Positions 19,997-45,306 of a DNA stretch of 64,000 nt are shown one piece after another. This stretch comes from Bacteroidota bacterium (lineage in GTDB: Bacteria; Bacteroidota; Ignavibacteria; Kapaibacteriales; NICIL-2), in assembly GCA_019695345.1 (NCBI GenBank), contig JAIBAE010000004.1, positions 39,765 to 103,764 of the forward strand, read 5' to 3'. The notes under the pieces are model-generated. The model made no database searches. It was not told the origin of the DNA and worked only from the letters and a program-made list of their open reading frames with translations. The translations under genes were made by a program, and so were the position numbers. The stretch's first letter is position 1. Each line of letters begins with the position of its first letter.

Positions 19997-20137
19997 AAAG
20001 CAACCTCCCAAATTGAGATGAAAAAATTAATGATTCCCTAAGAAGTGCGAAGTTGTACGTGGTAGATAATCCCAAGTTACAGAGATTCTGTGCAACATAC
20101 TGTTAATTTTTGTCAAAGGAAAAATGATAGTCAGGAA

Positions 20138-23279: not shown

Positions 23280-24130
23280 GTATAATGAAGTACAAAGAAA
23301 CATATAGAACTTCTACTTCTCGTTTGGCATCGTGGGATTACTCTAATACAGGTGCATACTTTGTTACAATTTGTACTCGTGACAAAAAACAATACTTTGG
23401 AAGTATCAATGTACATGAAAACAATGAACTTGCTAATGTATCTGTTGTAACAACACAACTTGGACAAAGGGCAATTGAGGAATGGCATAAAACACCGGAG
23501 ATTCGGCCTGATATGAATATCGAGTTATTGGATTTTGTATTGATGCCAAATCACATACATGGAATAATATTCATCAAAGAGAATGAATACAATACTCGTA
23601 GAGACGCGATGCCTCGCGTTTTGAATGACACATCAATACAATCACGTAGAGACGCGATGCCTCGCGTCTTAACAGGTGAAACAGAACGGTGTAATCGTTT
23701 TTCAAGTCAATCAAAGAATCTTGCATCAATAATACGGGGATATAAATCTGCCGTTACAATGTATGCCCGGTTACACAACATAGAGTTTGCGTGGCAACCA
23801 AAGTATTACGAGCATGTAATCCGAAACGAACAGGATTTACAGCGTATTCAAGTTTATATCCAGAATAATCCTGCACAATGGAAGTTGGATGAGTTATATA
23901 ATAACGAGTAGAAAACACAAATGCGGATGATTTCCGACGCGAGGCATCGCGTCGCTACGATTTGTTGGTGTTACTCTCAAATTGTGCTGTTGCTATCCGA
24001 CGCGAGGTATCGCGCCGCTACTGGAATGAGTGTAATTGATATTCGCGAGGTACCAAACGGTGTGTACGGTATTCGTATGACAACACCTCACGGTTTATAT
24101 CAAACACGGTTTGTTGTTTCGCGATGATTC
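23140..24130. mobile_element. REP/RAYT-like unit. The transposase is flanked by, and internally carries, copies of the palindrome gacgcgaggcatcgcgtc, and a 135 bp piece of the upstream gene's 3' end is duplicated.
   Basis: Hairpin copies lie at about 23147-23170 (imperfect, inside the CTD-coding sequence), at 23601-23620 and 23649-23668 (reverse orientation, inside the transposase ORF), and at 23933-23957 and 24003-24026. The segments 23143-23279 and 23997-24127 are about 88% identical. ORF 23921..24127 encodes ...SDARYRAATGMSVIDIREVPNGVYGIRMTTPHGLYQTRFVVSR. Confidence 0.65.
23285..23911 (+). CDS. IS200/IS605-family (RAYT-like) HUH tyrosine transposase.
   Basis: N-terminal ...GAYFVTICTRDKKQYFG..., the HuH motif MPNHIHGIIFI, and the C-terminal YEHVIRNEQDLQRIQVYIQNNP catalytic-Tyr region. 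The ORF contains an in-frame 48 bp tandem duplication that carries the REP-like hairpin. Confidence 0.8.
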   Translation: MKYKETYRTSTSRLASWDYSNTGAYFVTICTRDKKQYFGSINVHENNELANVSVVTTQLGQRAIEEWHKTPEIRPDMNIELLDFVLMPNHIHGIIFIKENEYNTRRDAMPRVLNDTSIQSRRDAMPRVLTGETERCNRFSSQSKNLASIIRGYKSAVTMYARLHNIEFAWQPKYYEHVIRNEQDLQRIQVYIQNNPAQWKLDELYNNE

Positions 24131-28525: not shown

Positions 28526-28812
28526 ACGGTACACAACAAAGGGGTTCGTAGGTATATTATTTTTTTCTGGATGAAGCCGCACCAAACCACGTTGTAAGCA
28601 AGTAACTTACTGTGCGGGATAGAACAATGTTGTAGAATAGGACGTTCATCGTTTAGGATTGAGAGATACAATTCGTAAACGATAAATACCAAGCAGTTGC
28701 CATGACGTATATGTCAATGCAATGCACCCTTTTGTTGTTAGTTGAGCATCGGAGCAGTCTACCAAAAACACAACTCCACTTAAATTCCTGTTGTTCTATA
28801 CGGAGCGTTGTG

Positions 28813-31800
28813 ATGAGTTTCTCACGATTTACTCTTTTCCTGTTTTTGTTGTGCAGTTCGGTCGTATTTGCACAAATACCACGTACGGTAAATTACCAAG
28901 GTGTATTGCTTGATGCACAAAACCAACCCGTTACCGATTCTACGTACCTTGTAAAGTTCTCGTTGTTTACATCAAGTGCTAACGGGACTGAATTATGGAG
29001 CGAAGATAAATTGGTAACTACCAGTGGTGGTGTTTTTGATGTTATACTTGGAACACGTGCACCATTATCGTTATCGTTTGATGCACCATATTGGCTTGAA
29101 ATACAGGTTGAAAATCGTGCACCATTTACTCCACGGATTGGATTAACATCTGTTCCGTATGCGCTACGTGCAGATACAACTACTGTAGCACTTGAGGTTT
29201 CGTCAAATGCCAAAGTAGTCCGTAGTATTAATGCAATATCAGGTAATGTGCGGCTGAAAGCAGGAAGCGGTGTGCAGATTACTGAACTTGGCGATACTAT
29301 TACAATTTCTACCACAGCTGTTGGTAGCGCAAATCCAATTATACGTAGTCCACAGGGAACATTAGTTGTATCGGGTAAAGATACGATTGACATTGATGTT
29401 GCCGATGGTGGGATATTAACAAAACATCTTGCCGATAAATCAATAACAACTGTAAAGATTGCACAGAACGGTGCTACGAACGGTCAGGTTTTAAAATGGA
29501 ATGGAACAACGTGGGTTGCTGCCGATGATAATGGCAGTAGTTATTCCGCAGGAAGTGGTATTACAATAAATGCCGGTGTAGTAACCAATACCGGTGATAC
29601 TGATCCAAACGATGATATAACAAACACATCAACCGCCGGTGGAGATTTGACTGGAACTTATCCAAATCCAACAGTTAAAGCTGGCGCTATTACAACTCCT
29701 AAAATTGCTGATGCAGCAGTTACAGGTGCTAAGTTAGAAGATATTATTACTTCAGGAACATTTGGTAATGCAAGCACGGTTCCACAGATTACAGTTGATA
29801 CTAAAGGAAGAATAACCGGCGTTCAGAATGTACCTATTAGTGCTACTAATCTTACCACTGCCGGAGGTGATTTAGATGGAACTTATCCAAATCCGACCTT
29901 AGCACAAAAAGGTGCAACAAATGGTCAGGTATTAAAATGGAATGGTACATCATGGCAACCTGATAATGATAACGGTCAGGTGTACAACGCAGGTAGAGGT
30001 ATTTCTATAAACGGTGCGTTGATATTAAACACCGGTGATGCTGATTCAACAAACGATGTTACCATAACATCAACAGCAGGTGGAGATGTAAGTGGTGTGT
30101 TTAACAATCTTAAAGTTGAGAAGATTCAGAATGTAAATGTATCATCAACCACTCCAACCAACGGACAGTTGTTACAGTTTAATGCCACAACAAACTCATG
30201 GGAACCGGTTACCATAAACACAGGAAGCAGCGGTGTTGCAGGTGGAGATTTAGCCGGAACGTACCCAAATCCAACCATAGCCCAAAAAGGTGCAAGCAAC
30301 GGTCAGGTATTAGGATGGAATGGAAGTGCGTGGATACCCGTAACGCCACAAACAAGTGGTAATGCCGGCGGAGATTTAACGGGAACATATCCTAACCCAA
30401 CATTGGCGCAAAAAGGTGCAACCAATAACCAAGTATTAAAGTGGAATGGCACATCATGGCAACCTGCAAATGATGACGGACAAACTTATACAGCCGGAAC
30501 TGGAATTAACATTACGGCTGGAGTTGTAACCAACACAGGAGATACAGATGCAAGTAATGATATAACAAACTCAACAACTGCTGCAGGTGATTTAACAGGA
30601 ACATATCCTGCTCCAACTATTGCGCAAAAAGGTGCAACCAGTGGACAAGTGTTGAAATGGAATGGAACGGCATGGACACCATCGACAGATAATGGTGATG
30701 TATATACCGCAGGAGATGCTATCAATATCACAGCCGGTGCGATTGGTGTAACTGATGGTTCTATCACTACAGCTAAACTTGCGAACAATGCTGTTACTAC
30801 TGCTAAGATTACTGATGCTAATGTTACTACACCAAAACTTGCTGATGGTTCTGTAACCTCTACGAAGTTGAATCAGATGTCTGCTACAAGCGGACAAGTG
30901 CTGAAATGGAACGGAACGAGTTGGCAACCTGCCAATGATGACGGACAAACATATACAGCCGGAACAGGAATTAATATTACTTCTGGAGTTGTAACCAACA
31001 CAGGTGATACTGATGCAAGTAATGATATAACAAACTCAACAACAGCCGCAGGTGATTTAACAGGAACATATCCTGCACCAACAATAGCACAAAAAGGTGC
31101 AACGAATGGTCAGGTATTAGGATGGAACGGAAGCGCGTGGATACCTGTAACACCACAAACAAGTGGTTCGGCAGGTGGCGATTTAACGGGGACATATCCT
31201 AACCCAACATTGGCGCAAAAAGGAGCAACCAACGGACAAGTGTTGAAATGGAATGGAACGGCATGGACACCATCGACAGATAATGGCGATGTGTACACAG
31301 CAGGAGATGCTATTAACATAACAGCCGGTGCGATTGGAGTAACCGATGGTTCGATTACCACGGCTAAACTTGCGAACAATGCTGTTACTACAGCTAAGAT
31401 TACTGATGCTAACGTTACAACACCTAAACTCGCTGATGGCTCTGTGACGAGTGCGAAGCTGAATCAAATGTCGGCTACAAGCGGGCAGTCGTTAGTGTGG
31501 AATGGAACCGCATGGACTCCGACAACAGTAAGTGCAAGTGGAACAGCCGGTGGAGATTTAAGTGGTACATATCCAAACCCAAATGTGGTGAAGTTACAAA
31601 CACGTGACGTATCAAGTACTGCACCAACGAGCGGACAAGTGTTAAAGTGGAATGGAACGGCATGGACACCATCAACAGATAATGGTGATGTGTACACAGC
31701 GGGTGATGCTATTAACATAACAGCAGGAGCAATTGGCGTAACTGATGGTTCAATCACAACAGCTAAACTTGCTACTAATGCTGTTACTACTGCGAAGATT

Positions 31801-34800
31801 ACCGATGCTAACGTTACAACACCTAAACTTGCCGATGGCTCTGTGACGAGTGCGAAGCTGAATCAAATGTCGGCTACAAGCGGGCAGTCGTTAGTGTGGA
31901 ATGGAACCGCATGGACTCCGACAACAGTTACAACAAGTGGAACAGCAGGTGGAGATTTAAGCGGCACATATCCAAACCCGAATGTGGTGAAGTTACAAAC
32001 ACGTGATGTATCGAGTACAGCACCAACCAGTGGACAAGTATTAAAGTGGAATGGAACGGCATGGACGCCATCAACAGATAATGGTGATGTGTATACAGCC
32101 GGTGATGCAATTAACATTACAGCAGGAGCAATTGGCGTAACTGATGGTTCAATCACCACAGCTAAACTTGCTACCAATGCTGTAACGACTGTTAAGATTA
32201 ATGATGCTAATGTTACTACACCAAAACTTGCTGATGGTTCAGTAACATCTGCGAAGTTGAATCAGATGTCGGCTACAAGCGGGCAGGTGTTGAAGTGGAA
32301 TGGCACGGCATGGACACCATCGACAGATAATGGCGATGTGTATACAGCGGGTGATGCTATTAACATTACAGCAGGTGCAATTGGAGTAACCGATGGTTCT
32401 ATAACGACAGCTAAACTTGCTACCAATGCTGTAACTACAGTTAAGATTACCGATGCTAATGTAACAACACCTAAACTCGCTGATGGTTCTGTAACCTCTG
32501 CGAAGCTAAATCAGATGTCGGCTACAAGTGGACAAGTGTTAAAATGGAATGGCACGGCATGGATACCATCGACAGATAATGGTGATGTATATACTGCAGG
32601 TGATGCTATTAACATTACAGCCGGTGCAATTGGTGTAACTGATGGTTCTATCACCACAGCGAAACTTGCAAACAATGCAGTGACAACTGCAAAGATTACT
32701 GATGCTAATATTACTACACCAAAACTTGCTGATGGCTCTGTTACTTCTACAAAGTTGAATCAGATGTCGGCTACAACAGGGCAATCGTTAGTGTGGAATG
32801 GTACAGCATGGACACCAACAACAGTAAGTGCAAGTGGAACAGCAGGCGGAGATTTAAGTGGAACGTATCCAAACCCGAATGTGGTGAAGTTACAAACACG
32901 TGATGTATCGAGTACAGCTCCAACGAGTGGGCAGGTGTTGAAGTGGAATGGCACAGCTTGGACACCATCGACAGATAATGGTGATGTGTACACAGCAGGA
33001 GATGCGATTAACATTACAGCCGGTGCAATTGGTGTAACAGACGGTTCCATCACCACAGCTAAACTTGCTACCAATGCTGTTACTACTGCTAAGATTACCG
33101 ATGCTAATGTAACCACACCAAAACTTGCGGATGGTTCTGTAACGTCTGCGAAACTGAATCAGATGAGTGCAACGAACGGGCAGACGTTAGTATGGAATGG
33201 TACGGCATGGACTCCGACAACAGTAAGTGCAAGTGGAACAGCAGGGGGTGATTTGAGTGGTACATATCCAAACCCAAATGTTGTGAAGTTGCAGAACAGA
33301 AATGTTGCTGCAACAGCACCAACAAACGGACAAGTTTTGAAATGGAATAACACCACAAGTGTTTGGGAGCCAGGTGCTGATAACAATACAACGTACACAG
33401 CCGGAGCAGGAATATCGATTGCAGGTAATGTTATTAGCAACTCAGGCGATACCGATGCGAGTAATGATATTACCAATACAACAACAGCAGGTGGAGATTT
33501 AAGCGGAACATATCCTAATCCAAATGTAGTGAAGTTACAAACGAGAGACGTATCGAGTACTGCACCAACCACCGGACAAGCATTAGTATGGAATGGTACA
33601 GCGTGGGCACCAAGTGCAGTATCTGTTAGTGGTTCGGCAGGTGGAGATTTAACAGGGACGTATCCTAACCCAAGTGTCGCGGTAAACGCTATAACAACAG
33701 CAAAGATTCTGGACGGCAATGTGACGACGAGTAAGTTATCCGATGGCTCGGTGACGTCTGCGAAGCTGAATCAAATGTCAGCTACGAGCGGGCAATCGTT
33801 AGTGTGGAATGGAACGGCATGGACGCCAACAACAGTTACAACAAGTGGCACAGCAGGAGGAGATTTAAGTGGTACCTATCCAAACCCGAATGTGGTTAAA
33901 CTGCAAACACGTGATGTATCGAGTACTGCACCCACGAGTGGGCAATCGTTAGTGTGGAATGGAACGGCATGGACTCCGACAACAGTAAGTGCAAGTGGAA
34001 CAGCAGGTGGAGATTTAAGCGGTACATATCCAAATCCAAATGTAGTGAAGTTACAGAACAGAAATGTTGCATCTACATCACCAACAAATGGACAGGTTTT
34101 GAAATGGAATAACACCACAAGTGTGTGGGAACCGAGTGCCGATAATAACAATACATACACAGCCGGAGCAGGTATAAGTATAGCTGGTAACGTTATAACA
34201 AATACCGGAGATACAGATGCAAGCAATGACATCACTAACACAACAACAGCTGGTGGAGATTTAAGTGGCACCTATCCAAACCCAAATGTGGTGAAACTGC
34301 AAACGCGTGATGTATCGAGTACGGCTCCAACAACAGGTCAGGTACTAAAATGGAATGGCACTGCTTGGACCCCATCTACAGATGCAGGTGGTTCGGGTGA
34401 TGTAACTACACTTGGCACTGTAATAGATAATCAACTAACACGATACCATAATACAAGTGGCGATACAATCCAATCAAGCGCTATTGTTATTGATGACTAC
34501 ACAACAACTACACAAAATAATGTAGCCATAAAAGCAGATGATGGTGCAACAGCTGATATCACACTTGTTCTTGCTCCTAAAGGTAATGGTGCTCTGTCGG
34601 CGGATAAGCCGAATGGTGTAGCTGCAGGAGGAAATGCTCGCGGAATAGCAGCTGTCGATTTTCAGATGGAGCGATCTGCTGCAACGCATGTTGCATCTGG
34701 TGACTACTCTACTATTGGCGGAGGCTATGCAAACACGGCAAGTGGCAACTATTCAACTGTTGCAGGCGGTTATCAGAATTCCGCGACCGCTTTCCGATCT

Positions 34801-37800
34801 TCGGTAACAGGTGGTTATCTAAACGTAGCCGGAAATACTAACTCGGTTGTGGCTGGTGGTCACACGAACAACAGTAGTGGGGCACAGTCTGCAATTCTCG
34901 GAGGTAGCGACAATGTCATTACGAGTACAGCCAACAACTCATCAATTGTCGGAGGTAGCACTAATACTCTCGAGGGAAGCTACAGCACAATACTGGGTGG
35001 AGTAGGTTTGCGTTTTACAGGTTCGTACAATTTCGGATTCAATGGTTTGACAACTACTGCAGACTCTGCATACATCAATTCATCTCGTGTTGGTTACTTC
35101 GGAAACGTAGATCTCTGGCTTGGAAATACGAATGGATCAGCAAGTTCGCTTAAGTTCTTCGAAGCTCAAGCGTCTGATGGAACCTTTCCTGCGGCTGGAA
35201 CTAACTACACAGCATTTAAAGCAGGAACTCAAACAACAGATGTTACATACACACTGCCAACTGCAGCTCCTGCAAGTAACGGACAAGTATTAAGTAGTAC
35301 AACGGCAGGAACAATGAGTTGGGTAACTCCAAGTACGGGTACTGGTGATGTAACAACACTTGGCACTGTAACTGATAATCAACTAACACGATACCATAAT
35401 ACAAGTGGTGATACAATCCAATCAAGTGCAATTGTAATAGATGATTATACAACAACAACACAAAACAATGTAGCTATAAAAGCTGATGATGGTGCAACAG
35501 CTGATATCTCACTTGTTCTTGCTCCTAAAGGTAATGGTGCACTAACAGCAGATAAACCGGACGGCACCACAGCAGGTGGGAATGCACGTGGCACCAATGC
35601 TGTTGACTTTCAGATGGTAAGAGTTGCAGGTAACCAAGTAGCAAGTGGAGATAACTCTTTCATTGGCGCGGGCTCAAGAAATAAAGCCACTGGTGGTAAT
35701 ACGGCGGTTGTGTCCGGTTATCAGAATACTGCGAATCAGGGTGCTATTCTAACTGGTCAAGATAACACTGTTTCTGGTGCTGCTTCGGCAATTGCAGGTG
35801 GATATGGTAATACAGTTGGTAGCTCAGGTTCATGGTCAGCTATACTTGCCGGTTATCAAAACACTGTAAATGCTGCTACTAGTTCGATAGTAGGAGGAAA
35901 TAAACTTACGTTAGGCGGAGTTGGCTCATTAGGATTTAATGGTAAAGATAGTGCTGTTGTTGGAGCACAGTACACTGCATACTTTGGAAATGTTGATGTA
36001 TGGCTTGGCAATACAGATACAGTTGCCCGTTCTTTGCGTTTTTACGAGGCTCAGACTTCAAGTGGAAACTTCCCTGCGGCAGGAACTAACTACACAGCAT
36101 TTAAAGCAGGAACACAAGCAACCGATGTAACCTACACATTACCAACTGCTGCACCAACAAGTAACGGACAAGTTTTAAGCAGTACCACAGGTGGAACAAT
36201 GAGTTGGGTTACACCAAGTACAGGCACTGGAGATGTAATTACACTTGGTACTGTAACAGATAATCAGCTAACACGTTACCATAATGCAACGGGTGATACC
36301 GTGCAAGGTAGTGCAATAGTTATAGATGATTATACAACAACAACACAAAACAATGTTGCTATAAAAGCAGATGATGGAAGTACTGCTAACATTTCGTTGG
36401 TAATGGCACCCAAAGGTACAGGAGCATTGATTGCAAGTAAACCAGACGGCACAGCTACTGGTGGTAATGCACGTGGTGCAAATGCAGTGGATTTACAAAC
36501 AGTTAGAGCGAATGCTGCCTATGTAGCAAGTGGAAATTATTCTGTGATTGCTGGGGGGGCTGAGAATAGAGCAACTGCCCTCTACTCAACAGTTGGTGGT
36601 GGCTACAATCACATTGCATCCGATACAGGTGCAACTATTGCAGGTGGTAATCAAAACTGGGCACAAGCTAACTATGCAACAGTAGGTGGAGGCTCTGGAA
36701 ATAGAGCCACAGCAGACTACGGAACGGTAGCAGGTGGAAATAGCAATGATGCCTCTGGACAATATTCTTTTGCTGGTGGTGGTAAATCAAATAATGCGTC
36801 AGGTCAATATGGAGTTGCTCTGGGCGGTTTGACCAATCAGGCAGATGGGGTATATTCTACAGTTATAAACGGTACAGATAACATCGCATCTGGTGATATA
36901 TCAACAATTCTTGGTGGAACTAAAAACATCACCGCAGGTAATTATACTATTGTTGGCGGGCATGGATTAAATTTTGGTAGTAACGCGGATAATAGTTTTG
37001 GGTATCATGGTTATAATGTATTGAGTGATTCGGTGTATATCAATACATCCAACATTGCTTACTTTGGTAATGTGGATATGTGGCTTGGTAATACAAGAAA
37101 CACAGCCAGCCAACTTAAGTTTTTTGAGCCACAATCAACCGACGGAACCTTCCCTGCAGCGGGTACTAACTATACAGCATTTAAAGCAGGAACGCAAACA
37201 ACTGATGTTACATACACATTGCCAACCGCAGCACCTGCAAGTAACGGACAAGTGTTAAGTAGTACAACAACAGGTACAATGAGTTGGGTAACACCAAGTA
37301 CAGGTACTGGTGATGTAGTTACACTTGGCACTGTAACAGATAACCAACTTACACGTTACCATAACACAAGTGGGGATACAATACAATCTAGTGCAATAGT
37401 GATTGATGACTACACAACAACTACTCAAAATAATGTAGCTATTAAGGCCGATAATGGTGCAGCTCTTGACATCTCCTTAGTTCTTGTGCCTAAAGGTAAC
37501 GGAGCATTAATTTCTAGTAAACCTGATGGAACCGCAACCGGGGGTAATGCTCGTGGAATGTATGCAGTTGATTTACAACTAAATCGTGCAGCAGCATCTC
37601 AAGTAGCAAACGGTGCCTACGCTACGGTTCTTGGCGGTAGGCGAAATACGGCTAATGGGCAGTATAGTATTGTGAGTGGCGGTGATGGTAATACAATTGG
37701 CGCAGGTGGCTTAGTTGCAACCGTTTCAGGCGGGTCATCAAATACTGCTACTAATACGTGGTCAACTATTGGTGGCGGAAATACAAACACAGCAACTGGA

Positions 37801-40800
37801 GTAGGAACTACTATTGGTGGTGGGCAAAATAATCAAGCAAGTAATAGTTATTCGGTTGTAGCGGGAGGTTTAACAGATACAGCGTCCGGTGATTACTCTG
37901 TTGTTAGTGGTGGAACTGCGAATGTTGCGAGTGGCACGAGTGCTGTAGTATCCGGTGGTGAATTAAACAAGGCAACAGGCAATCAAACTACAATTTTAGG
38001 TGGATTTGGTTTACGATTAGGAGGCACTGGTTCATTTGGTTTTAATGGTTTTAACACCGTTGCTGATTCTGCCTTTGTTTCGAATGATAGAACGGCATAT
38101 TTTGGCAACGTAGATTTGTGGTTGGGTAATACAGATAATACAACAAGTGAATTACGTTTCTTTGAAGCACAATCAACAGATGGAATCTTCCCTGCGGCCG
38201 GAACTAACTACACTGCATTTAAAGCAGGTACACAAACAGCAGATGTTACTTACACTCTTCCCACAGCGTATCCAACTGTTAGCGGGCAAGTTTTAAGCAG
38301 TACTACAGTTGGTGTTATGAGTTGGGTAACGGCAAGTAGTGGGTTAACGCATTTTACAGAATCAGTTAATACTTCAGCACCTAATGTAACAGTACCTGTA
38401 GTACGCTTGCTTGCAACAAATGCAGCTACCAATGTTGATGTGGCACTAAGCCCCAAAGGTAGCGGTGCACTAACAGGTAATGTAGCAGATAATACTCTAA
38501 GTGGTGGCAACAAACGTGGCACCTATGCTGTAGATTGGCAACTAAATCGATCTGCTGCTAACCAAGTAGCAAGTGGAAACTGGTCAGTTCTATCTGGTGG
38601 AGCTGGAAATGTTTCAAGTGGATTGTATTCAACTGTAGGTGGAGGATGGTTTAATCAGGCAACCAATCAACATGCAGTTGTAGGTGGTGGAGAAGGCAAC
38701 TCTGCAACTGCTGCCGCTTCTTCTGTTTTAGGTGGCTCTGGTAATATTGCAAGTGGGCAATATTCAGCTGCTGTTAGTGGATGGGTAAACACAGCAAGTG
38801 GAGGTTATTCCAATATTACTGGGGGTGATCATAATACAACCAGTGGAAGTTATTCCAATATTAATGGCGGCGGTTATAATACAGCAGGTGCTAACTATAC
38901 GGTAATTGGAGGTGGCTATCTAAATATAGTTGCGGCTGATTATACATCAATTGCTGGCGGTTATGCTCTTCGAATGGGAGGGGTCGGATCTTTTGGATTT
39001 AATGGATTCAATGCTCTAACTGACTCAGCTTACATAACTGCAAATAGAACGGCATATCTTGGTAATGTTGATTTATGGCTTGGAAATACTGACAACACTA
39101 CAAGTGAGCTTAGATTTTATGAAGCTCAGTCAACTGACGGAACTTTTCCAGCTGCTGGTACAAACTACACTGCATTCAAAGCAGGTACACAAACAGCAGA
39201 TGTTACTTACACTCTACCAACCGCAGCACCTGCAAGTAACGGTCAAGTGTTAAGTAGTACAACAACAGGAACAATGAGTTGGGTTACCGCCGGTGGCGGG
39301 GACGTGACCGGACCGGCATCCTCCGTTGATAACGCCTTAGCACGATATGATGGTACAACTGGTAAAATAATCCAGAACAGCGGTTTGATTCTTGACGATT
39401 ATTCTACAGCTACACAGGCAAACGTTACACTTCGCGCCGATAGCGGTTCGGTAGCAAACATTTCGATGGTATTATCACCGAAAGGAACTGGAGCTTTACT
39501 TGCTAACAAGCCAAATGGTGCTGTTACAGGCGGTAATGCAAGAGGCATCAATGCTGTTGACTTACAAACGAGTAGAACAGCATCTACTCAAGTAGCTTCT
39601 GGTGATTACACTGTTATATTAGGGGGTAGTGATAACACTGCCACTGGAACAGCATCCTCTATTCTAGGAGGGTATGATAACACGGCAAGTGGTAGCTTCT
39701 CTGTAATATCAGGTGGTTTTTCAAATTCAAATACAACTATTAGTTCTTATTCTGTTATCGGTGGCGGGCTTCATAATTCTGTGAGTGATGGTGGATCAAC
39801 GGTAGGTGGTGGGGTAGATAATTCGGCCTTAGCACAGGGGAGTGCTATAGCTGGTGGTGGAAGAAATTATACTAACCAAAATTATGGAAGTATTAGTGGC
39901 GGTTTTGAGGATACTATAAACACTTCTGCCACCTACGCTACAATTTCAGGTGGACAAAGAAATAAGATTACTGCATCTTTAGGATCAATTGGGGGTGGTA
40001 AGGCTAATACCGTTAGTGGTGATTATTCTACCATAGCAGGTGGTTATTCGTTACGCCAGACAGGCATTGGTTCATTTGGGTTTAATGGTTATAACACAAT
40101 TGCCGATTCTGCTTATGTATCAGCAAATAGAACTGCTTACTTTGGCAACGTAGATTTGTGGTTGGGTAACACAGATAATACAACAAGTGAACTACGTTTC
40201 TTTGAAGCACAATCAACCGACGGAACCTTCCCAGCCGCAGGTACAAACTACACTGGGTTTAAAGCTGGCACACAAACAGCAGATATAACATACACGTTGC
40301 CAGTCGCAGCACCTGCAAGTAACGGTCAGGTATTAAGTAGCACAACAGGTGGTGTTATGAGTTGGGTAACAGCTGGAAGTGGTGATGTAACCGGACCTTC
40401 CGCCTCTGTAAATAACGCTATTGCACGATTTGATGGTACAACAGGTAAAATTATCCAAAATAGTGGAATAGTTATAGATGACACAGTTACAGTAAGTGCT
40501 AAAAAAATAGTAACCCTTAGAGCTGAAGATAATACTACAGCAAATATTACTTTATCGTTGTTACCAAAAGGTACCGGTGCACTAACCGCCAGCAAACCAG
40601 ACGGTACAGCATTTGGCGGGAATATCAGAGGTGATTATGCAGTAGATTTACAGACATCAAGAGGTACCGGTACACAAGTAGCAAGTGGCAACTACTCTGT
40701 TATAAGTGGCGGAAAATTTAATACTGCATCTGGATTGAATTCTACCATTGCAGGTGGTTCGAGTTGTGTTGCAAGTGGCAACTATTCATTTGTAAGTAGT

Positions 40801-42132
40801 GGATTAAATAATGTTGCCAATGGGCTTTACTCAGCTATTGGTGGGGGTAGTGATAATTATGTTACACAACAAGGTAGTTCCATTTCCGGTGGCAGTAGGA
40901 ATTATGTTAATCAAGACTTTTCAACAATTGGTGGTGGTATTGATGATACCATCAATACTGCTGCAATATATTCCACTATTGCTGGCGGACAAGCCAACAA
41001 GATAACTGCAAATCGTTCTGCTATTGGTGGTGGTTATGGAAATTATATCAGTGGGGCGAGTGGTACAATTGCCGGGGGCTATCTGGACACAGTTTCCGGT
41101 ACTTTTGCAGTTGTTGCTGGTGGTTATAAAAATAATGTTAGTGGAAGCTATTCAACTATTAGCAGTGGTTATGTTAATTATGTCAGCAGTCAATACTCTG
41201 CAATTTTAGGAGGTGCTAATAATGATGTTACTGCAAACTATTCTTCAGTTCTTGGTGGGCAAGCAAATACAGCAAATGGCCAATACAATTTGGTATTTGG
41301 AAATGCAGTTGTACCAACGGTAACAGAAAACTACCGTGTATATTTCTTCGAACCTACAAGCTACGGGTTCTTGGGAATTAACCGTGAAGATTTAGACTAC
41401 CCTATTCATGTTGGGACGAGTGCTTCCAATGGTAATGGCGCGTATCTGACGACTGGTGGAGTGTGGACAAACGGTTCATCACGAACATTCAAAGACCGTT
41501 ATACAAGTTTGGATAGTGCCGAAGTACTTAAGAAAGTTCGCAATCTTGATGTTCGTGGGTGGTGGTACAAAGGAACACAAGAGTATCATGTCGGACCTTT
41601 TGCCGAGGATTTTCGTGATGCCTTTGGAACAGGTGTTCTGGACAACACTGATAGTAGAAAATACTTAGCCGCCACAGACATTGCAGGTGTTGCGTTGTAC
41701 TCATCGCAACAACTTATCAAACAAAACGAACAACTCTTTTCTGAAAACGAGCGCATGAAATCCGAAAACGAATCTATTAAACTTCGTTTGGAACGTTTGG
41801 AAAGTATTATTTCTAACAAACCCGTTTCTACCGAAACTGTTACACCTGTTCAGCAAACAAAAACAAATGCTCCGCGAATTGTTAGCATTGCGCCGGACCC
41901 GGCAGGAAACTACGCAGTAGTAAAATTCGAGTTGCCAAAAGCTGCTAATGTTGAACTGTTTGTTTCGGCAGGTAATGGAACTCGTACGCTTGATATTATG
42001 AGTGGCGTGTTTATGCAAGCAGGTACCTACGATGTAGAAGTAAATCTTAACGATGTAGCAAACGGTTGGTATGTATGCGAACTTCGTGCATCGGCTGAAT
42101 CTGCACAACGGTTGTTCAGAGTAGTTAAATAA
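28813..42132 (+). CDS. Giant (about 4440 aa) secreted tail-fibre-like adhesin. It has a signal peptide, an N-terminal domain, eight 80/126-aa repeats, seven repeats of about 330 aa, a C-terminal intramolecular-chaperone (peptidase S74-like) domain and a T9SS CTD.
   Basis: The ORF is 28702..42132. The likely start is Met at 28813 (MSFSRFTLFLFLLCSSVVFAQ). DNA repeats of 240 bp (period example 32281 to 32521) encode ...AINITAGAIGVTDGSITTAKLA... Repeats of about 1 kb begin at approximately 34380, 35340, 36230, 37310, 38340, 39300 and 40380 (GDVTTLGTVTDNQLTRYHNTSGDTIQ...YFGNVDLWLGNT...). The C-terminal GNGAYLTTGGVWTNGSSRTFKDRY...HVGPFAEDFRDAFG...DIAGVALYSSQQLIKQNEQL matches the phage tail-fibre chaperone domain. 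The final 85 aa (IVSIAPDPAGNYAVVKFELPK...LFRVVK) match the T9SS CTD. Confidence 0.85.
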   Translation: MSFSRFTLFLFLLCSSVVFAQIPRTVNYQGVLLDAQNQPVTDSTYLVKFSLFTSSANGTELWSEDKLVTTSGGVFDVILGTRAPLSLSFDAPYWLEIQVENRAPFTPRIGLTSVPYALRADTTTVALEVSSNAKVVRSINAISGNVRLKAGSGVQITELGDTITISTTAVGSANPIIRSPQGTLVVSGKDTIDIDVADGGILTKHLADKSITTVKIAQNGATNGQVLKWNGTTWVAADDNGSSYSAGSGITINAGVVTNTGDTDPNDDITNTSTAGGDLTGTYPNPTVKAGAITTPKIADAAVTGAKLEDIITSGTFGNASTVPQITVDTKGRITGVQNVPISATNLTTAGGDLDGTYPNPTLAQKGATNGQVLKWNGTSWQPDNDNGQVYNAGRGISINGALILNTGDADSTNDVTITSTAGGDVSGVFNNLKVEKIQNVNVSSTTPTNGQLLQFNATTNSWEPVTINTGSSGVAGGDLAGTYPNPTIAQKGASNGQVLGWNGSAWIPVTPQTSGNAGGDLTGTYPNPTLAQKGATNNQVLKWNGTSWQPANDDGQTYTAGTGINITAGVVTNTGDTDASNDITNSTTAAGDLTGTYPAPTIAQKGATSGQVLKWNGTAWTPSTDNGDVYTAGDAINITAGAIGVTDGSITTAKLANNAVTTAKITDANVTTPKLADGSVTSTKLNQMSATSGQVLKWNGTSWQPANDDGQTYTAGTGINITSGVVTNTGDTDASNDITNSTTAAGDLTGTYPAPTIAQKGATNGQVLGWNGSAWIPVTPQTSGSAGGDLTGTYPNPTLAQKGATNGQVLKWNGTAWTPSTDNGDVYTAGDAINITAGAIGVTDGSITTAKLANNAVTTAKITDANVTTPKLADGSVTSAKLNQMSATSGQSLVWNGTAWTPTTVSASGTAGGDLSGTYPNPNVVKLQTRDVSSTAPTSGQVLKWNGTAWTPSTDNGDVYTAGDAINITAGAIGVTDGSITTAKLATNAVTTAKITDANVTTPKLADGSVTSAKLNQMSATSGQSLVWNGTAWTPTTVTTSGTAGGDLSGTYPNPNVVKLQTRDVSSTAPTSGQVLKWNGTAWTPSTDNGDVYTAGDAINITAGAIGVTDGSITTAKLATNAVTTVKINDANVTTPKLADGSVTSAKLNQMSATSGQVLKWNGTAWTPSTDNGDVYTAGDAINITAGAIGVTDGSITTAKLATNAVTTVKITDANVTTPKLADGSVTSAKLNQMSATSGQVLKWNGTAWIPSTDNGDVYTAGDAINITAGAIGVTDGSITTAKLANNAVTTAKITDANITTPKLADGSVTSTKLNQMSATTGQSLVWNGTAWTPTTVSASGTAGGDLSGTYPNPNVVKLQTRDVSSTAPTSGQVLKWNGTAWTPSTDNGDVYTAGDAINITAGAIGVTDGSITTAKLATNAVTTAKITDANVTTPKLADGSVTSAKLNQMSATNGQTLVWNGTAWTPTTVSASGTAGGDLSGTYPNPNVVKLQNRNVAATAPTNGQVLKWNNTTSVWEPGADNNTTYTAGAGISIAGNVISNSGDTDASNDITNTTTAGGDLSGTYPNPNVVKLQTRDVSSTAPTTGQALVWNGTAWAPSAVSVSGSAGGDLTGTYPNPSVAVNAITTAKILDGNVTTSKLSDGSVTSAKLNQMSATSGQSLVWNGTAWTPTTVTTSGTAGGDLSGTYPNPNVVKLQTRDVSSTAPTSGQSLVWNGTAWTPTTVSASGTAGGDLSGTYPNPNVVKLQNRNVASTSPTNGQVLKWNNTTSVWEPSADNNNTYTAGAGISIAGNVITNTGDTDASNDITNTTTAGGDLSGTYPNPNVVKLQTRDVSSTAPTTGQVLKWNGTAWTPSTDAGGSGDVTTLGTVIDNQLTRYHNTSGDTIQSSAIVIDDYTTTTQNNVAIKADDGATADITLVLAPKGNGALSADKPNGVAAGGNARGIAAVDFQMERSAATHVASGDYSTIGGGYANTASGNYSTVAGGYQNSATAFRSSVTGGYLNVAGNTNSVVAGGHTNNSSGAQSAILGGSDNVITSTANNSSIVGGSTNTLEGSYSTILGGVGLRFTGSYNFGFNGLTTTADSAYINSSRVGYFGNVDLWLGNTNGSASSLKFFEAQASDGTFPAAGTNYTAFKAGTQTTDVTYTLPTAAPASNGQVLSSTTAGTMSWVTPSTGTGDVTTLGTVTDNQLTRYHNTSGDTIQSSAIVIDDYTTTTQNNVAIKADDGATADISLVLAPKGNGALTADKPDGTTAGGNARGTNAVDFQMVRVAGNQVASGDNSFIGAGSRNKATGGNTAVVSGYQNTANQGAILTGQDNTVSGAASAIAGGYGNTVGSSGSWSAILAGYQNTVNAATSSIVGGNKLTLGGVGSLGFNGKDSAVVGAQYTAYFGNVDVWLGNTDTVARSLRFYEAQTSSGNFPAAGTNYTAFKAGTQATDVTYTLPTAAPTSNGQVLSSTTGGTMSWVTPSTGTGDVITLGTVTDNQLTRYHNATGDTVQGSAIVIDDYTTTTQNNVAIKADDGSTANISLVMAPKGTGALIASKPDGTATGGNARGANAVDLQTVRANAAYVASGNYSVIAGGAENRATALYSTVGGGYNHIASDTGATIAGGNQNWAQANYATVGGGSGNRATADYGTVAGGNSNDASGQYSFAGGGKSNNASGQYGVALGGLTNQADGVYSTVINGTDNIASGDISTILGGTKNITAGNYTIVGGHGLNFGSNADNSFGYHGYNVLSDSVYINTSNIAYFGNVDMWLGNTRNTASQLKFFEPQSTDGTFPAAGTNYTAFKAGTQTTDVTYTLPTAAPASNGQVLSSTTTGTMSWVTPSTGTGDVVTLGTVTDNQLTRYHNTSGDTIQSSAIVIDDYTTTTQNNVAIKADNGAALDISLVLVPKGNGALISSKPDGTATGGNARGMYAVDLQLNRAAASQVANGAYATVLGGRRNTANGQYSIVSGGDGNTIGAGGLVATVSGGSSNTATNTWSTIGGGNTNTATGVGTTIGGGQNNQASNSYSVVAGGLTDTASGDYSVVSGGTANVASGTSAVVSGGELNKATGNQTTILGGFGLRLGGTGSFGFNGFNTVADSAFVSNDRTAYFGNVDLWLGNTDNTTSELRFFEAQSTDGIFPAAGTNYTAFKAGTQTADVTYTLPTAYPTVSGQVLSSTTVGVMSWVTASSGLTHFTESVNTSAPNVTVPVVRLLATNAATNVDVALSPKGSGALTGNVADNTLSGGNKRGTYAVDWQLNRSAANQVASGNWSVLSGGAGNVSSGLYSTVGGGWFNQATNQHAVVGGGEGNSATAAASSVLGGSGNIASGQYSAAVSGWVNTASGGYSNITGGDHNTTSGSYSNINGGGYNTAGANYTVIGGGYLNIVAADYTSIAGGYALRMGGVGSFGFNGFNALTDSAYITANRTAYLGNVDLWLGNTDNTTSELRFYEAQSTDGTFPAAGTNYTAFKAGTQTADVTYTLPTAAPASNGQVLSSTTTGTMSWVTAGGGDVTGPASSVDNALARYDGTTGKIIQNSGLILDDYSTATQANVTLRADSGSVANISMVLSPKGTGALLANKPNGAVTGGNARGINAVDLQTSRTASTQVASGDYTVILGGSDNTATGTASSILGGYDNTASGSFSVISGGFSNSNTTISSYSVIGGGLHNSVSDGGSTVGGGVDNSALAQGSAIAGGGRNYTNQNYGSISGGFEDTINTSATYATISGGQRNKITASLGSIGGGKANTVSGDYSTIAGGYSLRQTGIGSFGFNGYNTIADSAYVSANRTAYFGNVDLWLGNTDNTTSELRFFEAQSTDGTFPAAGTNYTGFKAGTQTADITYTLPVAAPASNGQVLSSTTGGVMSWVTAGSGDVTGPSASVNNAIARFDGTTGKIIQNSGIVIDDTVTVSAKKIVTLRAEDNTTANITLSLLPKGTGALTASKPDGTAFGGNIRGDYAVDLQTSRGTGTQVASGNYSVISGGKFNTASGLNSTIAGGSSCVASGNYSFVSSGLNNVANGLYSAIGGGSDNYVTQQGSSISGGSRNYVNQDFSTIGGGIDDTINTAAIYSTIAGGQANKITANRSAIGGGYGNYISGASGTIAGGYLDTVSGTFAVVAGGYKNNVSGSYSTISSGYVNYVSSQYSAILGGANNDVTANYSSVLGGQANTANGQYNLVFGNAVVPTVTENYRVYFFEPTSYGFLGINREDLDYPIHVGTSASNGNGAYLTTGGVWTNGSSRTFKDRYTSLDSAEVLKKVRNLDVRGWWYKGTQEYHVGPFAEDFRDAFGTGVLDNTDSRKYLAATDIAGVALYSSQQLIKQNEQLFSENERMKSENESIKLRLERLESIISNKPVSTETVTPVQQTKTNAPRIVSIAPDPAGNYAVVKFELPKAANVELFVSAGNGTRTLDIMSGVFMQAGTYDVEVNLNDVANGWYVCELRASAESAQRLFRVVK

Positions 42133-42195
42133 TATGCTATCGCAAACCGCACCGAGGCGTTGTGCATACTACAACATTTTTCTGCGGGAAAGAAC
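42133..42195 (+). repeat. Intergenic A/B element, forward copy, immediately after the giant gene's stop codon.
   Basis: tatgctatcgcaaaccgcaccgag ... ttctgcgggaaagaacg. The first 21 nt are identical to the copy at 12526. Confidence 0.6.
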
Positions 42196-42370
42196 GTTCA
42201 TCGTATCCTTACGTTTATCGTTTTGTACGGTGTTCGTAACAAACATAAAGCCGGATACTTGATAAACAGTAGTATAAGTAAACATCGCGAAGCTGAAGGA
42301 TGTGTCCCTACCGGGTTGCGGCGCAGGATGGGTTGCTTCGGCAGTTGAGAGAAACAACAAATAAAAAAGA

Positions 42371-43309
42371 ATGATAACGAATGTATCACATACAACTCAC
42401 GTACTGACCGCCATACTGTGCGCTATGCTTAGCTTCTTCCCAATTGCAACATTGGCGCAGTCCCCGGCATCGCAACGCGGTGTTGTAAGTAGCGGCGGTC
42501 AGAGAGTGAGTACAAACAACGGACGAGAGATTCTGAACGGAAGTGTTGGACAGTTTGCTATTGGTAGAATTAGAGAAGCGAATACCAAAAATAATGTTGG
42601 TTTTTGGTACGGTGCTGTTTCGTTGTTTGCTAAACCTAACAGCGAGAGCATTATAGAGCTGCCAAACGTTACTGCGGATATTGGCGTTATGATTGATGTT
42701 CCGTTGATTTTAGTGCAGTCGAAAAATTTACAACGGGTTAAGGCAAAATCGTTTGAGGCAGTTATACGATATAACATCCATGTGCTGGAAAGCAAGCAAT
42801 GGAGCGGTGTTAGAAGCGGTGACTCGATGCGGATAACAGTTAAGGGAACTTTGCAAAGTAATGATACATTACTTTCGATACCGTTTTTAACCAAGTTAGG
42901 CAATGCCGAATACACACCCTTGATTATAGAAAAGTTTACGTGGTTGGAATCGCCAACTACAAACAATATAGTTCGCAACGGAAGAGTTGATTTTACCGGT
43001 ATCTGCCACGAAGGTGATACTACACGATTAGTATTTTCGGCTGCAACAACAGCATTGCTATCGGTGTTTCCAAACCCAGCAAACGAAGAAGCTACAGTAC
43101 GTTTTCAGGTAGGGGAGAAAGGGCAAACGGATATTGCATTGGTTGATATGAATGGGCGTGTAGTAATGGGTGTGTACAGTGGTAAAGTTGAGAGATTAGG
43201 AGAATACACCGAAACGATAAATGTATCCACCATTGCAAGCGGATTATACTACGCTGTGTTGCGTTCCAGAACACGAACACAGGTTCACCAAGTAATAGTC
43301 AGGAAATAA
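42371..43309 (+). CDS. Secreted protein with a T9SS C-terminal sorting domain.
   Basis: Signal peptide ...AMLSFFPIATLAQS. The C-terminus LLSVFPNPANEEATVRFQV...LYYAVLRSRTRTQVHQVIVRK is CTD-like. Its stop overlaps the next gene's start (TAATG). Confidence 0.7.
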   Translation: MITNVSHTTHVLTAILCAMLSFFPIATLAQSPASQRGVVSSGGQRVSTNNGREILNGSVGQFAIGRIREANTKNNVGFWYGAVSLFAKPNSESIIELPNVTADIGVMIDVPLILVQSKNLQRVKAKSFEAVIRYNIHVLESKQWSGVRSGDSMRITVKGTLQSNDTLLSIPFLTKLGNAEYTPLIIEKFTWLESPTTNNIVRNGRVDFTGICHEGDTTRLVFSAATTALLSVFPNPANEEATVRFQVGEKGQTDIALVDMNGRVVMGVYSGKVERLGEYTETINVSTIASGLYYAVLRSRTRTQVHQVIVRK

Positions 43310-45306
43310 TGCGATATATCGTAACATCCATAGTGTTTATACTTTGTTATACACTTGCATTGGCGCAGGATACGATTCCACGGTTGCTGTATCACGTGTC
43401 GGGAGGTTTGCGATATGGTCTGACGTCGTATTCAACTACTCTTCATTCATTACCGGGAGTTCCTTCGTGTTGTCCGGGTTATGAGAGTGGTAGCGGCTCG
43501 GGGCTTTCCTATCAGGCACAGTATTTACAACCGGTAGCAATGGAAGACGATGTTTGTGTAGGAGTTGATGCCGGAGTTGAAAACATGAGCGGCACGTTAA
43601 CAACAACTGAAACTGAAACACTTGATGACGACGGAGTAACAAAACAAGGCGTGTTTGAGCATAGCATACAAACATCGTTACCAATGTTACGCATAAGTGG
43701 TATGGCACGAGCGCGCGTTTGGAACGATGTACTTATTAACGCAGGAATTGGAATGGGAATTCCGTTAGCACCGACATACCATCAGCAAGAGTTAATAACC
43801 GACCCACAAACATTACTTTTTAGCAATGGTACAAAAATCCGTAACGAACGTTCGGGCAGCTTACCCGAAGCAACCAGCGTGCATACTATACTTAATGTAG
43901 GTGTTGGGTATGCACTACCTGTATCGGCAAATAAACATTGGCAGTTGATTCCGGAGTTGCGGTACACCAAAAGCATGAATGATGTGATTGCAGGTACATA
44001 TTGGTCGGCACAGAGTTTTAGCCTTGGTATTGCATTGCAGTTTAGCATGTACTCAACACCACCGCCACCACCGCCGCCAGTTATTAAGCCAGATACTCCA
44101 AATGTAATAGCATTTGTACCGCCACCGCCGCCACCTATAAAACCTAAAACCGAGTTGATAAAACCATTTGAACTCAAACTAACAAAAGGTGATGGGAAGA
44201 CTATAGATACCATTGTGGTTACAAATATTGTTGCAACTACAATGTTTTCTCTGATGCACTATGTATTTTTTGACAGTCTCTCAACGGAAATACCAAAACG
44301 TTATGAACTCTTAACCCCAGAACAAGTTAATAGTTTCTCAATATCAATGCTGGAAGGAAAAGGAACGTTTGGTGTGTATTATAACATGCTAAACATGATT
44401 GGATATAGGATGAGAAATACTAAATCAAAGATTACGTTGATTGGCTGTAACTCCAATACAGACACCGAAAAAAATAATCTTGAACTTTCAAAAGGTAGGG
44501 CTGAATCAGTTAAAAAGTATCTGACTGATGTGTGGGGTATTGCACCTGAACGAATACAAATTTCTGCGCGTAACCTACCGGAAACACCATCAAATCCTGT
44601 TTCGCAATATGGTATTGAAGAAAACCGTAGGGTAGAGATTCAATTCGAAGAACTATCGCTGTTTACTCCAACTGCCTTTCAGGATACAACAAGAACATTG
44701 AATAATCTTAACTTTGGCTTTACAGCCGGTGTTGAATGTGAAGCAGGTGTTGATACATGGGAGTTCTCAATTCTGCAAGGAAAGAAATCCATTGTTAGTG
44801 TAAATGGCAAAGATTCAATGCCCACATTGTTACAACAACAGTGGGATGAAAGAAAAATTGTTATTCCCGAAGCTGGAATACCAATAAATGGTAGATTAGT
44901 TATTAACGACAAAAATGGTAACCAAACTGTGTTTGAAACTAAACCTTTAGTTGTACAATCTCAGATAGAACAAAAGTTTATTCTAAAAAAATTCTCACTC
45001 ATTGTATTTAAGTTTAAAGAAAGTGCAGTTTCACCATTAAACTTACTAATATTAGATATGATACGCTCTCAGATTGAAAGTAACTCGATTGTTAATGTAA
45101 TCGGACACACAGATATATACGGGAATCCTGCATATAATCAAAAACTTTCCGAGCAGCGTGCTTTACAAATATCCAAACTTTTAAAACTTCCTAATTCTGC
45201 GGCAAGTGGAGTAGGAGGTTCCGACCCAATTCACGATAATACGTTGCCGGAAGGACGCTTCTACTCACGAACAGTTCAGATAAATATCGAGACTCCTAAA
45301 AAGTAA
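43309..45306 (+). CDS. OmpA-family outer-membrane protein with two OmpA-like peptidoglycan-binding domains and a poly-proline linker.
   Basis: OmpA-like segments NSNTDTEKNNLELSKGRAESVKKYLTD...EENRRVEIQ and IGHTDIYGNPAYNQKLSEQRALQISKLL. Poly-proline runs PPPPPPPVIKP and PPPPPPIKP. N-terminal signal peptide. Translationally coupled to the upstream gene. Confidence 0.75.
   Translation: MRYIVTSIVFILCYTLALAQDTIPRLLYHVSGGLRYGLTSYSTTLHSLPGVPSCCPGYESGSGSGLSYQAQYLQPVAMEDDVCVGVDAGVENMSGTLTTTETETLDDDGVTKQGVFEHSIQTSLPMLRISGMARARVWNDVLINAGIGMGIPLAPTYHQQELITDPQTLLFSNGTKIRNERSGSLPEATSVHTILNVGVGYALPVSANKHWQLIPELRYTKSMNDVIAGTYWSAQSFSLGIALQFSMYSTPPPPPPPVIKPDTPNVIAFVPPPPPPIKPKTELIKPFELKLTKGDGKTIDTIVVTNIVATTMFSLMHYVFFDSLSTEIPKRYELLTPEQVNSFSISMLEGKGTFGVYYNMLNMIGYRMRNTKSKITLIGCNSNTDTEKNNLELSKGRAESVKKYLTDVWGIAPERIQISARNLPETPSNPVSQYGIEENRRVEIQFEELSLFTPTAFQDTTRTLNNLNFGFTAGVECEAGVDTWEFSILQGKKSIVSVNGKDSMPTLLQQQWDERKIVIPEAGIPINGRLVINDKNGNQTVFETKPLVVQSQIEQKFILKKFSLIVFKFKESAVSPLNLLILDMIRSQIESNSIVNVIGHTDIYGNPAYNQKLSEQRALQISKLLKLPNSAASGVGGSDPIHDNTLPEGRFYSRTVQINIETPKK

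Follow-up and report, generated by a model that had tools for sequence, protein, structure and literature searches.

Fibers that end in an S74-type intramolecular chaperone domain (ICD, also ICA) are known from bacterial cells. Caulton et al. (2024) described 21 MAT (mosaic adhesive trimer) fibers of Bdellovibrio bacteriovorus, each consisting of a signal peptide, an invariant β-rich N-domain of ~130 amino acids (aa) and a trimeric fiber, and 13 of these end in S74 (PMC10769870). Self-cleavage was shown with an S782A mutant, and the location on the cell surface was shown experimentally; the N-domain, which is without a homolog in the PDB, was proposed to bind a surface element, and the study did not deal with how the fibers cross the outer membrane (PMC10769870). 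Here, we analyze a gene in a stretch of 64,000 nucleotides (nt) of contig JAIBAE010000004.1 from a Bacteroidota bacterium (referred to as the window; all coordinates count from its first nucleotide). The gene lies at 28813–42132 on the + strand and encodes a 4,439-aa protein in which an S74-type ICD is followed by a type A C-terminal sorting domain (CTD) of a type IX secretion system (T9SS).

The protein resembles the S74 subgroup of MAT fibers (e.g., Bd3182) in a cellular origin, a signal peptide with a β-rich N-domain directly behind it, a fiber that we take to be trimeric, and a C-terminal S74 domain with a Ser-x4-Lys motif. MAT fibers end at S74, whereas the 4,439-aa protein adds a linker and the T9SS CTD. 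It also exceeds them four- to fivefold in length, its body consists of YadA-head-like β-rolls rather than of the β-helix and tips of MAT fibers, and its gene, in contrast to MAT genes, lies in a conserved cassette with genes for a CTD protein and an OmpA protein.

ICDs of phage proteins (K1F endoNF and T5 pb1; PF13884, MEROPS S74) have the same Ser-Lys spacing of +5, a helix behind a small β-domain, and a position directly after trimeric β-structure. Phage ICDs form the extreme C-terminus and are cytoplasmic, whereas here a secretion domain follows and the site of action of the ICD has to be periplasmic or extracellular; the present subfamily is, moreover, very divergent in sequence. The closest mechanistic analog for an ICD upstream of another module is found in MYRF/MrfA, where a targeting or anchoring module, in this case a transmembrane helix, comes after the ICD and coiled coil. 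Cleavage by the ICA of MyRF needs the trimer and frees the N-terminal trimer from the C-terminal membrane tether, and trimerization is driven by the coil equivalent to the one described later (PMC8326128). MYRF/MrfA differ from the present protein in being eukaryotic, in having a transcription factor as cargo, and in their tether, a helix in the membrane of the endoplasmic reticulum; sequence similarity is weak.

Among T9SS cargo, the giant adhesins RemA (type A CTD) and SprB (type B, with its cognate SprF) resemble the 4,439-aa protein in having a signal peptide, a β-sandwich CTD and a very large, repetitive surface-exposed chain. Type B cargo genes cluster with those for PorP/SprF, and one such cargo needs the peptidoglycan-binding protein PorE (PMC10202324); the present gene likewise clusters with genes for dedicated outer-membrane partners. 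Known T9SS cargo lose the CTD to PorU, whereas this protein has a protease module of its own upstream of the CTD. We found no report of a trimerization chaperone in a T9SS cargo, and, among the papers searched, no literature linking S74 or ICA domains to the T9SS.

Our reading, to which we give a probability of roughly 0.55, is that the protein forms a giant trimeric cell-surface fiber of MAT and phage-tail-fiber build that is exported by the T9SS, that the ICD sheds the CTD, and that the N-domain retains the fiber on the cell.

Gene and domain layout

The longest open reading frame (ORF) spans 28702–42132 (+). Behind the first three in-frame ATGs lies a stretch that is not hydrophobic, and the fourth, at 28813, starts a hydrophobic leader; we chose this start, which yields 4,439 aa. 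The leader reads MSFSRFTLFLFLLCSSVVFAQ and was assigned by eye from the sequence as a Sec-type signal peptide (aa 1–21; 28813–28875, +). More than 60 homologs have a similar hydrophobic leader, followed by the N-domain starting at residues 20 to 30. The NCBI annotation contains an identical 4,439-aa gene with the product name “hypothetical protein” (GCA_046329015.1, contig JAXLVM010000001.1, Candidatus Kapaibacterium sp.); the giant ORF of ~4440 aa in the original prediction matches this gene call. A second assembly carries a 4,427-aa ortholog that is 94% identical to the 4,439-aa protein, which argues that the ORF is a real gene; this ortholog and the many homologs rule out an artefactual ORF.

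From N- to C-terminus, the protein consists of the signal peptide, an N-terminal β-domain, ~1,700 aa of short repeats, seven units of ~330 aa, the ICD, a long helix, a linker, and the T9SS type A CTD.

The S74-type chaperone domain

Scans of the whole protein against Pfam and NCBIfam found neither the S74 domain nor the CTD, probably because bias correction on a low-complexity protein of 4.4 kaa masks the domains. We rejected this null result as proof of absence, since isolated segments and homologs do match. The isolated ICD segment (aa 4195–4308; 41395–41736, +) scored 21.8 and 22.1 bits against PF13884 in two sequence contexts (E ~2e-4; gathering score, 22), and the match spans profile positions 1 to 55 of 58, with Ser4222 at position 1. 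A homolog search with the last 266 aa retrieved 24 proteins, 14 of which carry a precomputed PF13884 match. When the aligned homologous ICD segments were scanned singly, PF13884 was matched in 17 of 18, the best at 4e-13.

Comparison with known chaperones, by which the catalytic residues were expected to be found, placed the predicted dyad at Ser4222 and Lys4227 (S-S-R-T-F-K; 41476–41493, +), as judged from the alignments and the PF13884 match. The Ser-to-Lys spacing of +5 equals that of S911/K916 in endoNF and S587/K592 in MyRF (PMC8326128). All 25 sequences in the alignment have both residues, and Asp4289 is likewise invariant across the family alignments. In endoNF and MyRF, the cut falls just before the Ser and the trimer is required (PMC8326128); the predicted scissile bond in the present protein is Gly4221–Ser4222.

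An AlphaFold model of aa 4174–4439, calculated as a single chain on the homolog alignment, predicts two well-folded domains, with a predicted local distance difference test score (pLDDT) of ~95 across the ICD and ~94 across a C-terminal β-sandwich, in line with the two modules that had been proposed for this region. Behind the ICD, the model has a helix of 49 residues (model residues 114–162, pLDDT >90), which corresponds to the long C-terminal ICD helix at aa 4287–4335 (41671–41817, +); its PDB matches are coiled coils, and it presumably forms a trimeric coiled coil. A flexible Thr/Pro/Gln-rich linker follows (aa 4336–4354; 41818–41874, +), with pLDDT values below 60, and below 50 at model residues 166–176; the segment is not conserved in the alignment.

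The top matches of the model in BFVD, a database of predicted viral structures, are annotated as Peptidase S74 or intramolecular chaperone auto-processing proteins, and the MyRF ICA structure 7dc3 was matched weakly by the ICD (E 0.014–0.27). A profile built from the ICD-only alignment returned from the PDB a weak match to MyRF (E 0.27) and chance matches, and endoNF, T5 and Bd3182 were not found; sequence alone thus does not tie this subfamily to the solved ICDs. From profiles, dyad and model combined, we conclude that this is a genuine, if divergent, ICD of the S74 type whose dyad is intact. Of the two profiles suggested for checking the original prediction, PF13884 matches the isolated segment marginally (21.8–22.1 vs. 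22 bits), and TIGR04183 gave no match to the CTD.

Among the best BFVD matches are proteins of giant viruses (Pithovirus LCPAC403/404/406 and Solivirus) that are annotated with YadA-like head or collagen repeats and S74. These annotations indicate that the combination of a head-repeat fiber and an ICD also exists in eukaryotic giant viruses.

The C-terminal sorting domain

The last 85 residues (aa 4355–4439; 41875–42129, +) form a divergent T9SS type A CTD of an “APDP...GWY...RLFRVVK” subtype. Profile–profile comparison supports this assignment: a profile of the family tails aligned with a profile of three confident CTDs encoded in the window with an hhalign probability of 95.8% (E 6.9e-9, 80 columns). 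These three CTDs belong to proteins encoded at 17303–20011 (−), 22299–23276 (+) and 42371–43309 (+), all of which pass PF18962 and TIGR04183, and their sequences indicate clearly that the genome uses T9SS type A signals. Among homologous tails, PF18962 was matched in five of the six that were aligned and in seven of another nine. To the same subtype belong the relatives P0045 (“VPDPASS...GWYV...AQRLFRV”), which scores 28.3 bits and hence above the PF18962 threshold of 27, and P0002, for which a PF18962 match is precomputed. In the AlphaFold model, the domain is a seven-strand β-sandwich (model residues 182–264); its matches are, in BFVD, viral proteins with the annotation “Secretion system C-terminal sorting domain” (E 8e-6) and, by Foldseek, the CTD of Tannerella mirolase (8qb1).

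The terminal β-sandwich could instead be an Ig-like or FlgD-like structural or binding domain of a protein that reaches the surface by another route or is periplasmic. The last 90 aa of the protein itself score just 13 to 14 bits against PF18962 (E 0.06–0.11), Foldseek matches of the two-domain model in the PDB are dominated by generic Ig folds, and most members of the family (83%) are without the domain, so that these must use another route. Against this, the profile–profile match to bona fide CTDs of the same genome makes a non-secretory β-sandwich unlikely, PF18962 scores are above threshold in relatives of this subtype, and the BFVD matches are annotated as sorting domains. Furthermore, the domain forms the extreme C-terminus in all 17 members that bear it, with conserved P-x-P and G-x-Y motifs and a conserved terminal basic residue. 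We consider a role other than as a secretion tag very improbable; the predicted T9SS CTD at the C-terminus is upheld, at a score for the protein itself that is below threshold.

Two of the other type A cargo are encoded within 12 kb upstream of the fiber gene, namely a 903-aa Rax2/Kelch-type β-propeller protein (17303–20011, −) and a 326-aa protein (22299–23276, +), and this gene region is rich in T9SS substrates. We also noted that some uncultured phage proteins among the BFVD matches bear domains annotated as T9SS sorting domains.

Recurrence of the chaperone and sorting domains in one protein

An exhaustive profile search with the ICD only gave 23,201 representative clusters (50% identity) at E ≤ 1e-3, and most members of this subfamily are annotated as hypothetical. 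A related-locus search with the single protein found one distant ICD from Clostridia. To count pairings, we used the 169 ICD-family proteins closest to the query together with the query itself (170 proteins). In this sample, 141 proteins (83%) have no CTD and end 10 to 60 aa past the ICD, i.e., after the coil. Another 17 (10%; not an unbiased frequency, as CTD-bearing members had gone into the profile by which the list was ranked) have ICD, a coil of ~40 aa, linker and CTD in this fixed order, with a tail of 125 to 175 aa. These 17 include at least three CTD sequence subtypes, and one of them, P0094 (2,113 aa), is an independent full-length case with signal peptide, N-domain, ICD and CTD. The statement that the two modules are not normally found together was therefore too strong. 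Recurrence in 17 members that keep the dyad argues that the architecture is recurrent and under selection and not a chance fusion.

The conflict in the order of events that had been pointed out is real: the chaperone, in cutting itself off, would take the CTD with it. Alternatively, the ICD may fold and trimerize the fiber without cutting, and PorU may remove the CTD and link a fiber that still bears its ICD and coil to anionic lipopolysaccharide (LPS). The linker before the CTD does contain a possible PorU-type site (KTN before and AP after the cut) that fits the rule of T/E/D/N followed by G/A/S (PMC10202324), and the S74 score of the subfamily against the Pfam model is low. This putative site, however, is not conserved in homologs, while the Ser, Lys and Asp of the ICD are kept in 17 of 17 CTD-bearing members and are near-invariant in 172 other ICD copies. 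Such invariance is not what relaxed selection predicts, which makes a non-cleaving ICD unlikely; it rather suggests that the cleavage chemistry has been selected precisely where cleavage would remove the CTD. We judge trimerization without cleavage to be quite improbable.

Several proteins in the family contain two or three ICD copies, namely P0025 (1,701 aa), P0026 (4,164 aa), P0027 (4,928 aa) and P0028 (3,409 aa), and multiple copies also occur in P0030, P0036, P0071, P0080 and others. Every copy that was checked retains S-x4-K and has further fiber sequence behind it. These proteins represent either “polyfibre” precursors that cleave themselves or gene calls that have been fused, and they indicate that an ICD with sequence behind it is not limited to the CTD case.

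N-terminal domain and fiber body

The region behind the signal peptide (aa 22–172, with a well-folded core at about aa 22–116; 28876–29328, +) is a β-rich domain that was delimited with jackhmmer and AlphaFold. It was found in 69 proteins (66 when the window protein, its database duplicate and one partial copy are excluded), always immediately behind the signal peptide, and more than 60 relatives share the layout of signal peptide, N-domain, fiber and ICD. The AlphaFold model of the domain is compact and all-β, with a pLDDT of ~95 across the first 95 residues. The domain belongs to no Pfam family and has no significant match in the PDB; a search of a word-indexed database returned short fragments only and no named family.

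Next comes a fiber region of short repeats (approximately aa 173–1860; 29329–34392, +), in which the motif map shows 23 “GQVLKWNG” motifs. The repeat periods given by Tandem Repeats Finder are 399, 249 and 150 nt, corresponding to 133, 83 and 50 aa, and the repeats match phage tail-fiber PHROG families with E values down to 2e-17. These repeats had been described as Ig-like units of 80 and 126 aa; neither the periods nor the matches agree with this, and nothing indicates an Ig fold.

The remainder of the body (34393–41331, +) was divided, with the motif map and phmmer, into seven large units of 295 to 362 aa, each with a GGNARG motif and a Gly/Asn/Ala/Ser-rich β-roll like that of the YadA and UspA1 heads. 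Six of the seven finish in YFGNVD...MSWVT connectors. The units match the trimeric head of Moraxella UspA1 (3pr7) with an E value of 1.4e-17, which bears out the head-like GG-N-A-G units of ~330 aa that had been proposed. Together, the UspA1-head and tail-fiber PHROG matches support a trimeric fiber body.

Left-handed β-roll head repeats, a trimeric logic and a coiled coil are features of the trimeric autotransporters (type Vc) YadA and UspA1. These differ from the present protein at the C-terminus, which here consists of ICD and CTD and has no YadA-type β-barrel. YadA_anchor gave no match on the whole protein or on its C-terminus, and the shared part is confined to the head repeats. Without such an anchor, the 4,439-aa protein is not a type Vc autotransporter, and this assignment was ruled out.

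Genomic context

Directly downstream of the fiber gene lies a gene (42371–43309, +) for a protein of 312 aa that has a signal peptide and is confidently assigned a T9SS type A CTD (PF18962, 47.7 bits; TIGR04183, 41.4 bits), the N-terminal 200 aa of which have no relative in the PDB. The start of the next gene (43309–45306, +) overlaps the stop of this one and encodes a 665-aa OmpA-family protein that matches PF00691 in two stretches. A poly-Pro linker in this protein is followed by two peptidoglycan-binding OmpA-like domains, with matches to OmpA, Pal and YfiB in the PDB at aa 358–447 and 553–663. Its first ~250 aa show an alternating pattern and an aromatic end (...LQFSMY), as in an outer-membrane β-barrel, before the PPPPPPP...PPPPPP linker. 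Weak NCBIfam similarity to PorE, a T9SS component, and to TpgA, a trimeric autotransporter partner, falls in both cases within the generic OmpA-like region.

The order of fiber gene, gene for a CTD protein of ~300 to 350 aa and gene for an OmpA protein of ~665 to 685 aa is found in the window (28813–45306) and in three other assemblies, beside P0094, P0047 and P0147 (loci L010:8001-17430, L013:4068-9831 and L014:1-5722); a further locus, L012:1-4672, ends inside the small gene. Orthologs of the small protein are encoded directly 3′ of the fiber gene in L010, L012, L013 and L014 (31–56% identity between loci), and those of the OmpA protein occupy the same position in L010, L013 and L014 (33–63% identity). 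The fiber C-termini are 44–57% identical between cassette loci. Retention of the order at such low identity amounts to conserved synteny over substantial divergence. The pair is absent beside the CTD-less relative P0012 (L015) and beside P0103 (L011), which has a different CTD subtype. Scans for promoters and terminators in the surroundings of the gene and of the cassette yielded nothing informative.

The tail-fiber PHROG matches, the viral BFVD matches and the S74 domain, which is classically a phage domain, would also fit a tail fiber of a phage, a tailocin or an extracellular contractile injection system (eCIS) in the chromosome. The neighboring genes, however, are housekeeping and cell-envelope genes (prolyl-tRNA synthetase (ProRS), TPR proteins, peptidase M42, a methyltransferase, thiamine pyrophosphokinase, CTD proteins, OmpA and a glycosyltransferase); among them, there are no capsid, sheath, tube or baseplate genes and no structural cluster of a phage, tailocin or eCIS. 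Moreover, the protein starts with a signal peptide and ends in a T9SS CTD, four assemblies retain its synteny with the CTD and OmpA genes, and 4,439 aa is far above the size of phage fibers. On the gene context and the signal peptide, we rejected a prophage or eCIS fiber, the chance of which we regard as very small.

A second giant gene runs past the left edge of the window (1–7692, −), with an open frame of 2,574 codons in the window and 3,574 aa in the NCBI record (also L009:12005-21470). It is transcribed divergently, ~21 kb upstream of the 4,439-aa gene. The encoded paralog agrees with the 4,439-aa protein in its signal peptide, N-domain, short repeats and large units, with blastp identities of 40–54%; its sequence was recovered up to ~420 aa short of the C-terminus. 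In GCA_044230155.1 (P0171, L008), a giant gene beside ProRS encodes a protein that is 94% identical overall to the 4,439-aa protein, and its N-terminal 1,765 aa resemble the left-hand paralog (76%). This mosaic suggests, from the sequence comparison, recombination between the paralogs or an assembly chimera across the repeats. Finally, a 208-aa ORF (23285–23908, +) between the T9SS cargo genes and the housekeeping block has a sub-threshold match to an IS200-like Y1 transposase (22.6 vs. 23 bits).

Proposed export, assembly, and release of the fiber

In the mechanism that we favor, the chain would be exported by Sec with removal of the 21-aa leader, and the β-sandwich CTD would direct it to the T9SS translocon. 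Three ICDs and the coiled coil would align three chains, so that folding of the β-roll fiber is nucleated from the C-terminal end. After the trimer has formed, the Ser4222–Lys4227 dyad would cut Gly4221–Ser4222 and yield a mature fiber chain of 4,200 aa (421 kDa) and a shed fragment of 24 kDa that contains the ICD, coil, linker and CTD. With the CTD located on the fragment that is shed, its task must be completed while the fragment is still attached, and we favor trimerization and cleavage during or after passage of the outer membrane. In this case, the ICD would provide a release step of the protein's own, by which the fiber is separated from the T9SS or PorV without PorU. The mature fiber, presumably an adhesin, would be retained on the cell by its N-domain, for which the small CTD cargo and the OmpA-family protein are candidate docking partners.

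Several observations weigh against this reading. The S74 score of the protein is at threshold level (21.8–22.1 vs. 22 bits), its CTD scores well below the PF18962 threshold and gave no match to TIGR04183, and the evidence for a T9SS in this genome consists of the CTD proteins of the 64-kb window. The model is that of a single chain, so that the trimer geometry and the assembly of the active site are extrapolated from it. The likeness of the N-domain to that of MAT fibers is one of position, β-rich character, a size of ~130 to 150 aa, and the lack of a PDB homolog for either. Lastly, according to the T9SS model, cargo folds in the periplasm before the CTD is recognized (PMC10202324), and periplasmic folding would imply cleavage before export.

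The last point leads to the main alternative, a different order of events in which trimerization and self-cleavage occur in the periplasm, and the ICD–coil–CTD trimer stays non-covalently on the fiber tip as a detachable secretion adaptor that is lost or processed by PorU after export. It draws on the domain evidence that also underlies the favored mechanism, and nothing in the sequence distinguishes the two. Besides the periplasmic folding of T9SS substrates described in the same review, the adaptor would be helped by the way in which ICD subunits are intertwined with the neighboring chain (“cable through a donut”; PMC8326128), which could retain the fragment. In endoNF, Bd3182 and MyRF, however, the chaperone separates from the mature trimer, and a folded trimer of 1.26 MDa with three CTDs would be an unprecedented T9SS substrate. 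We therefore consider cleavage ahead of export to be unlikely.

The favored mechanism may be extended to a distinct T9SS pathway of fiber assembly. The 4,200-aa chain, being unable to fold as a monomer, would be threaded C-terminus first under the guidance of a CTD that folds on its own, three ICDs would meet on the outside, zipping up of the fiber from C to N would help to pull the chain across, autoproteolysis by the ICD would replace PorU in freeing the cargo from CTD, PorV and translocon, and the small CTD protein and the OmpA-family protein would form a dedicated outer-membrane and peptidoglycan platform that captures the N-domain. This extension is tentative, and its full set of steps is unlikely to hold.

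Implications

S74-terminated cellular fibers of the MAT type were known; what is new is the T9SS CTD downstream of a self-cleaving chaperone and the conserved three-gene cassette. In the current view, the CTD of T9SS cargo is removed by PorU. A cargo with a conserved protease upstream of its CTD points to a second, sortase-independent route, and this route predicts a mature C-terminus that cannot be LPS-linked. Since an ICD cleaves solely in the correct trimer, the protein is also a built-in probe for whether the T9SS transports folded oligomers or unassembled chains.

The MAT study left export and the binding of the N-domain unexplained, and the present subfamily provides, for these two points, an explicit signal for export and a pair of conserved candidate partners. 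The threading pathway, if true, would explain how MAT-like fibers are mounted on cells in T9SS-bearing phyla, and cleavage by the ICD would then naturally report the place at which T9SS cargo oligomerize. With ~23,000 clusters, most of them hypothetical, the ICD subfamily represents a widespread and essentially unstudied class of bacterial surface fibers.

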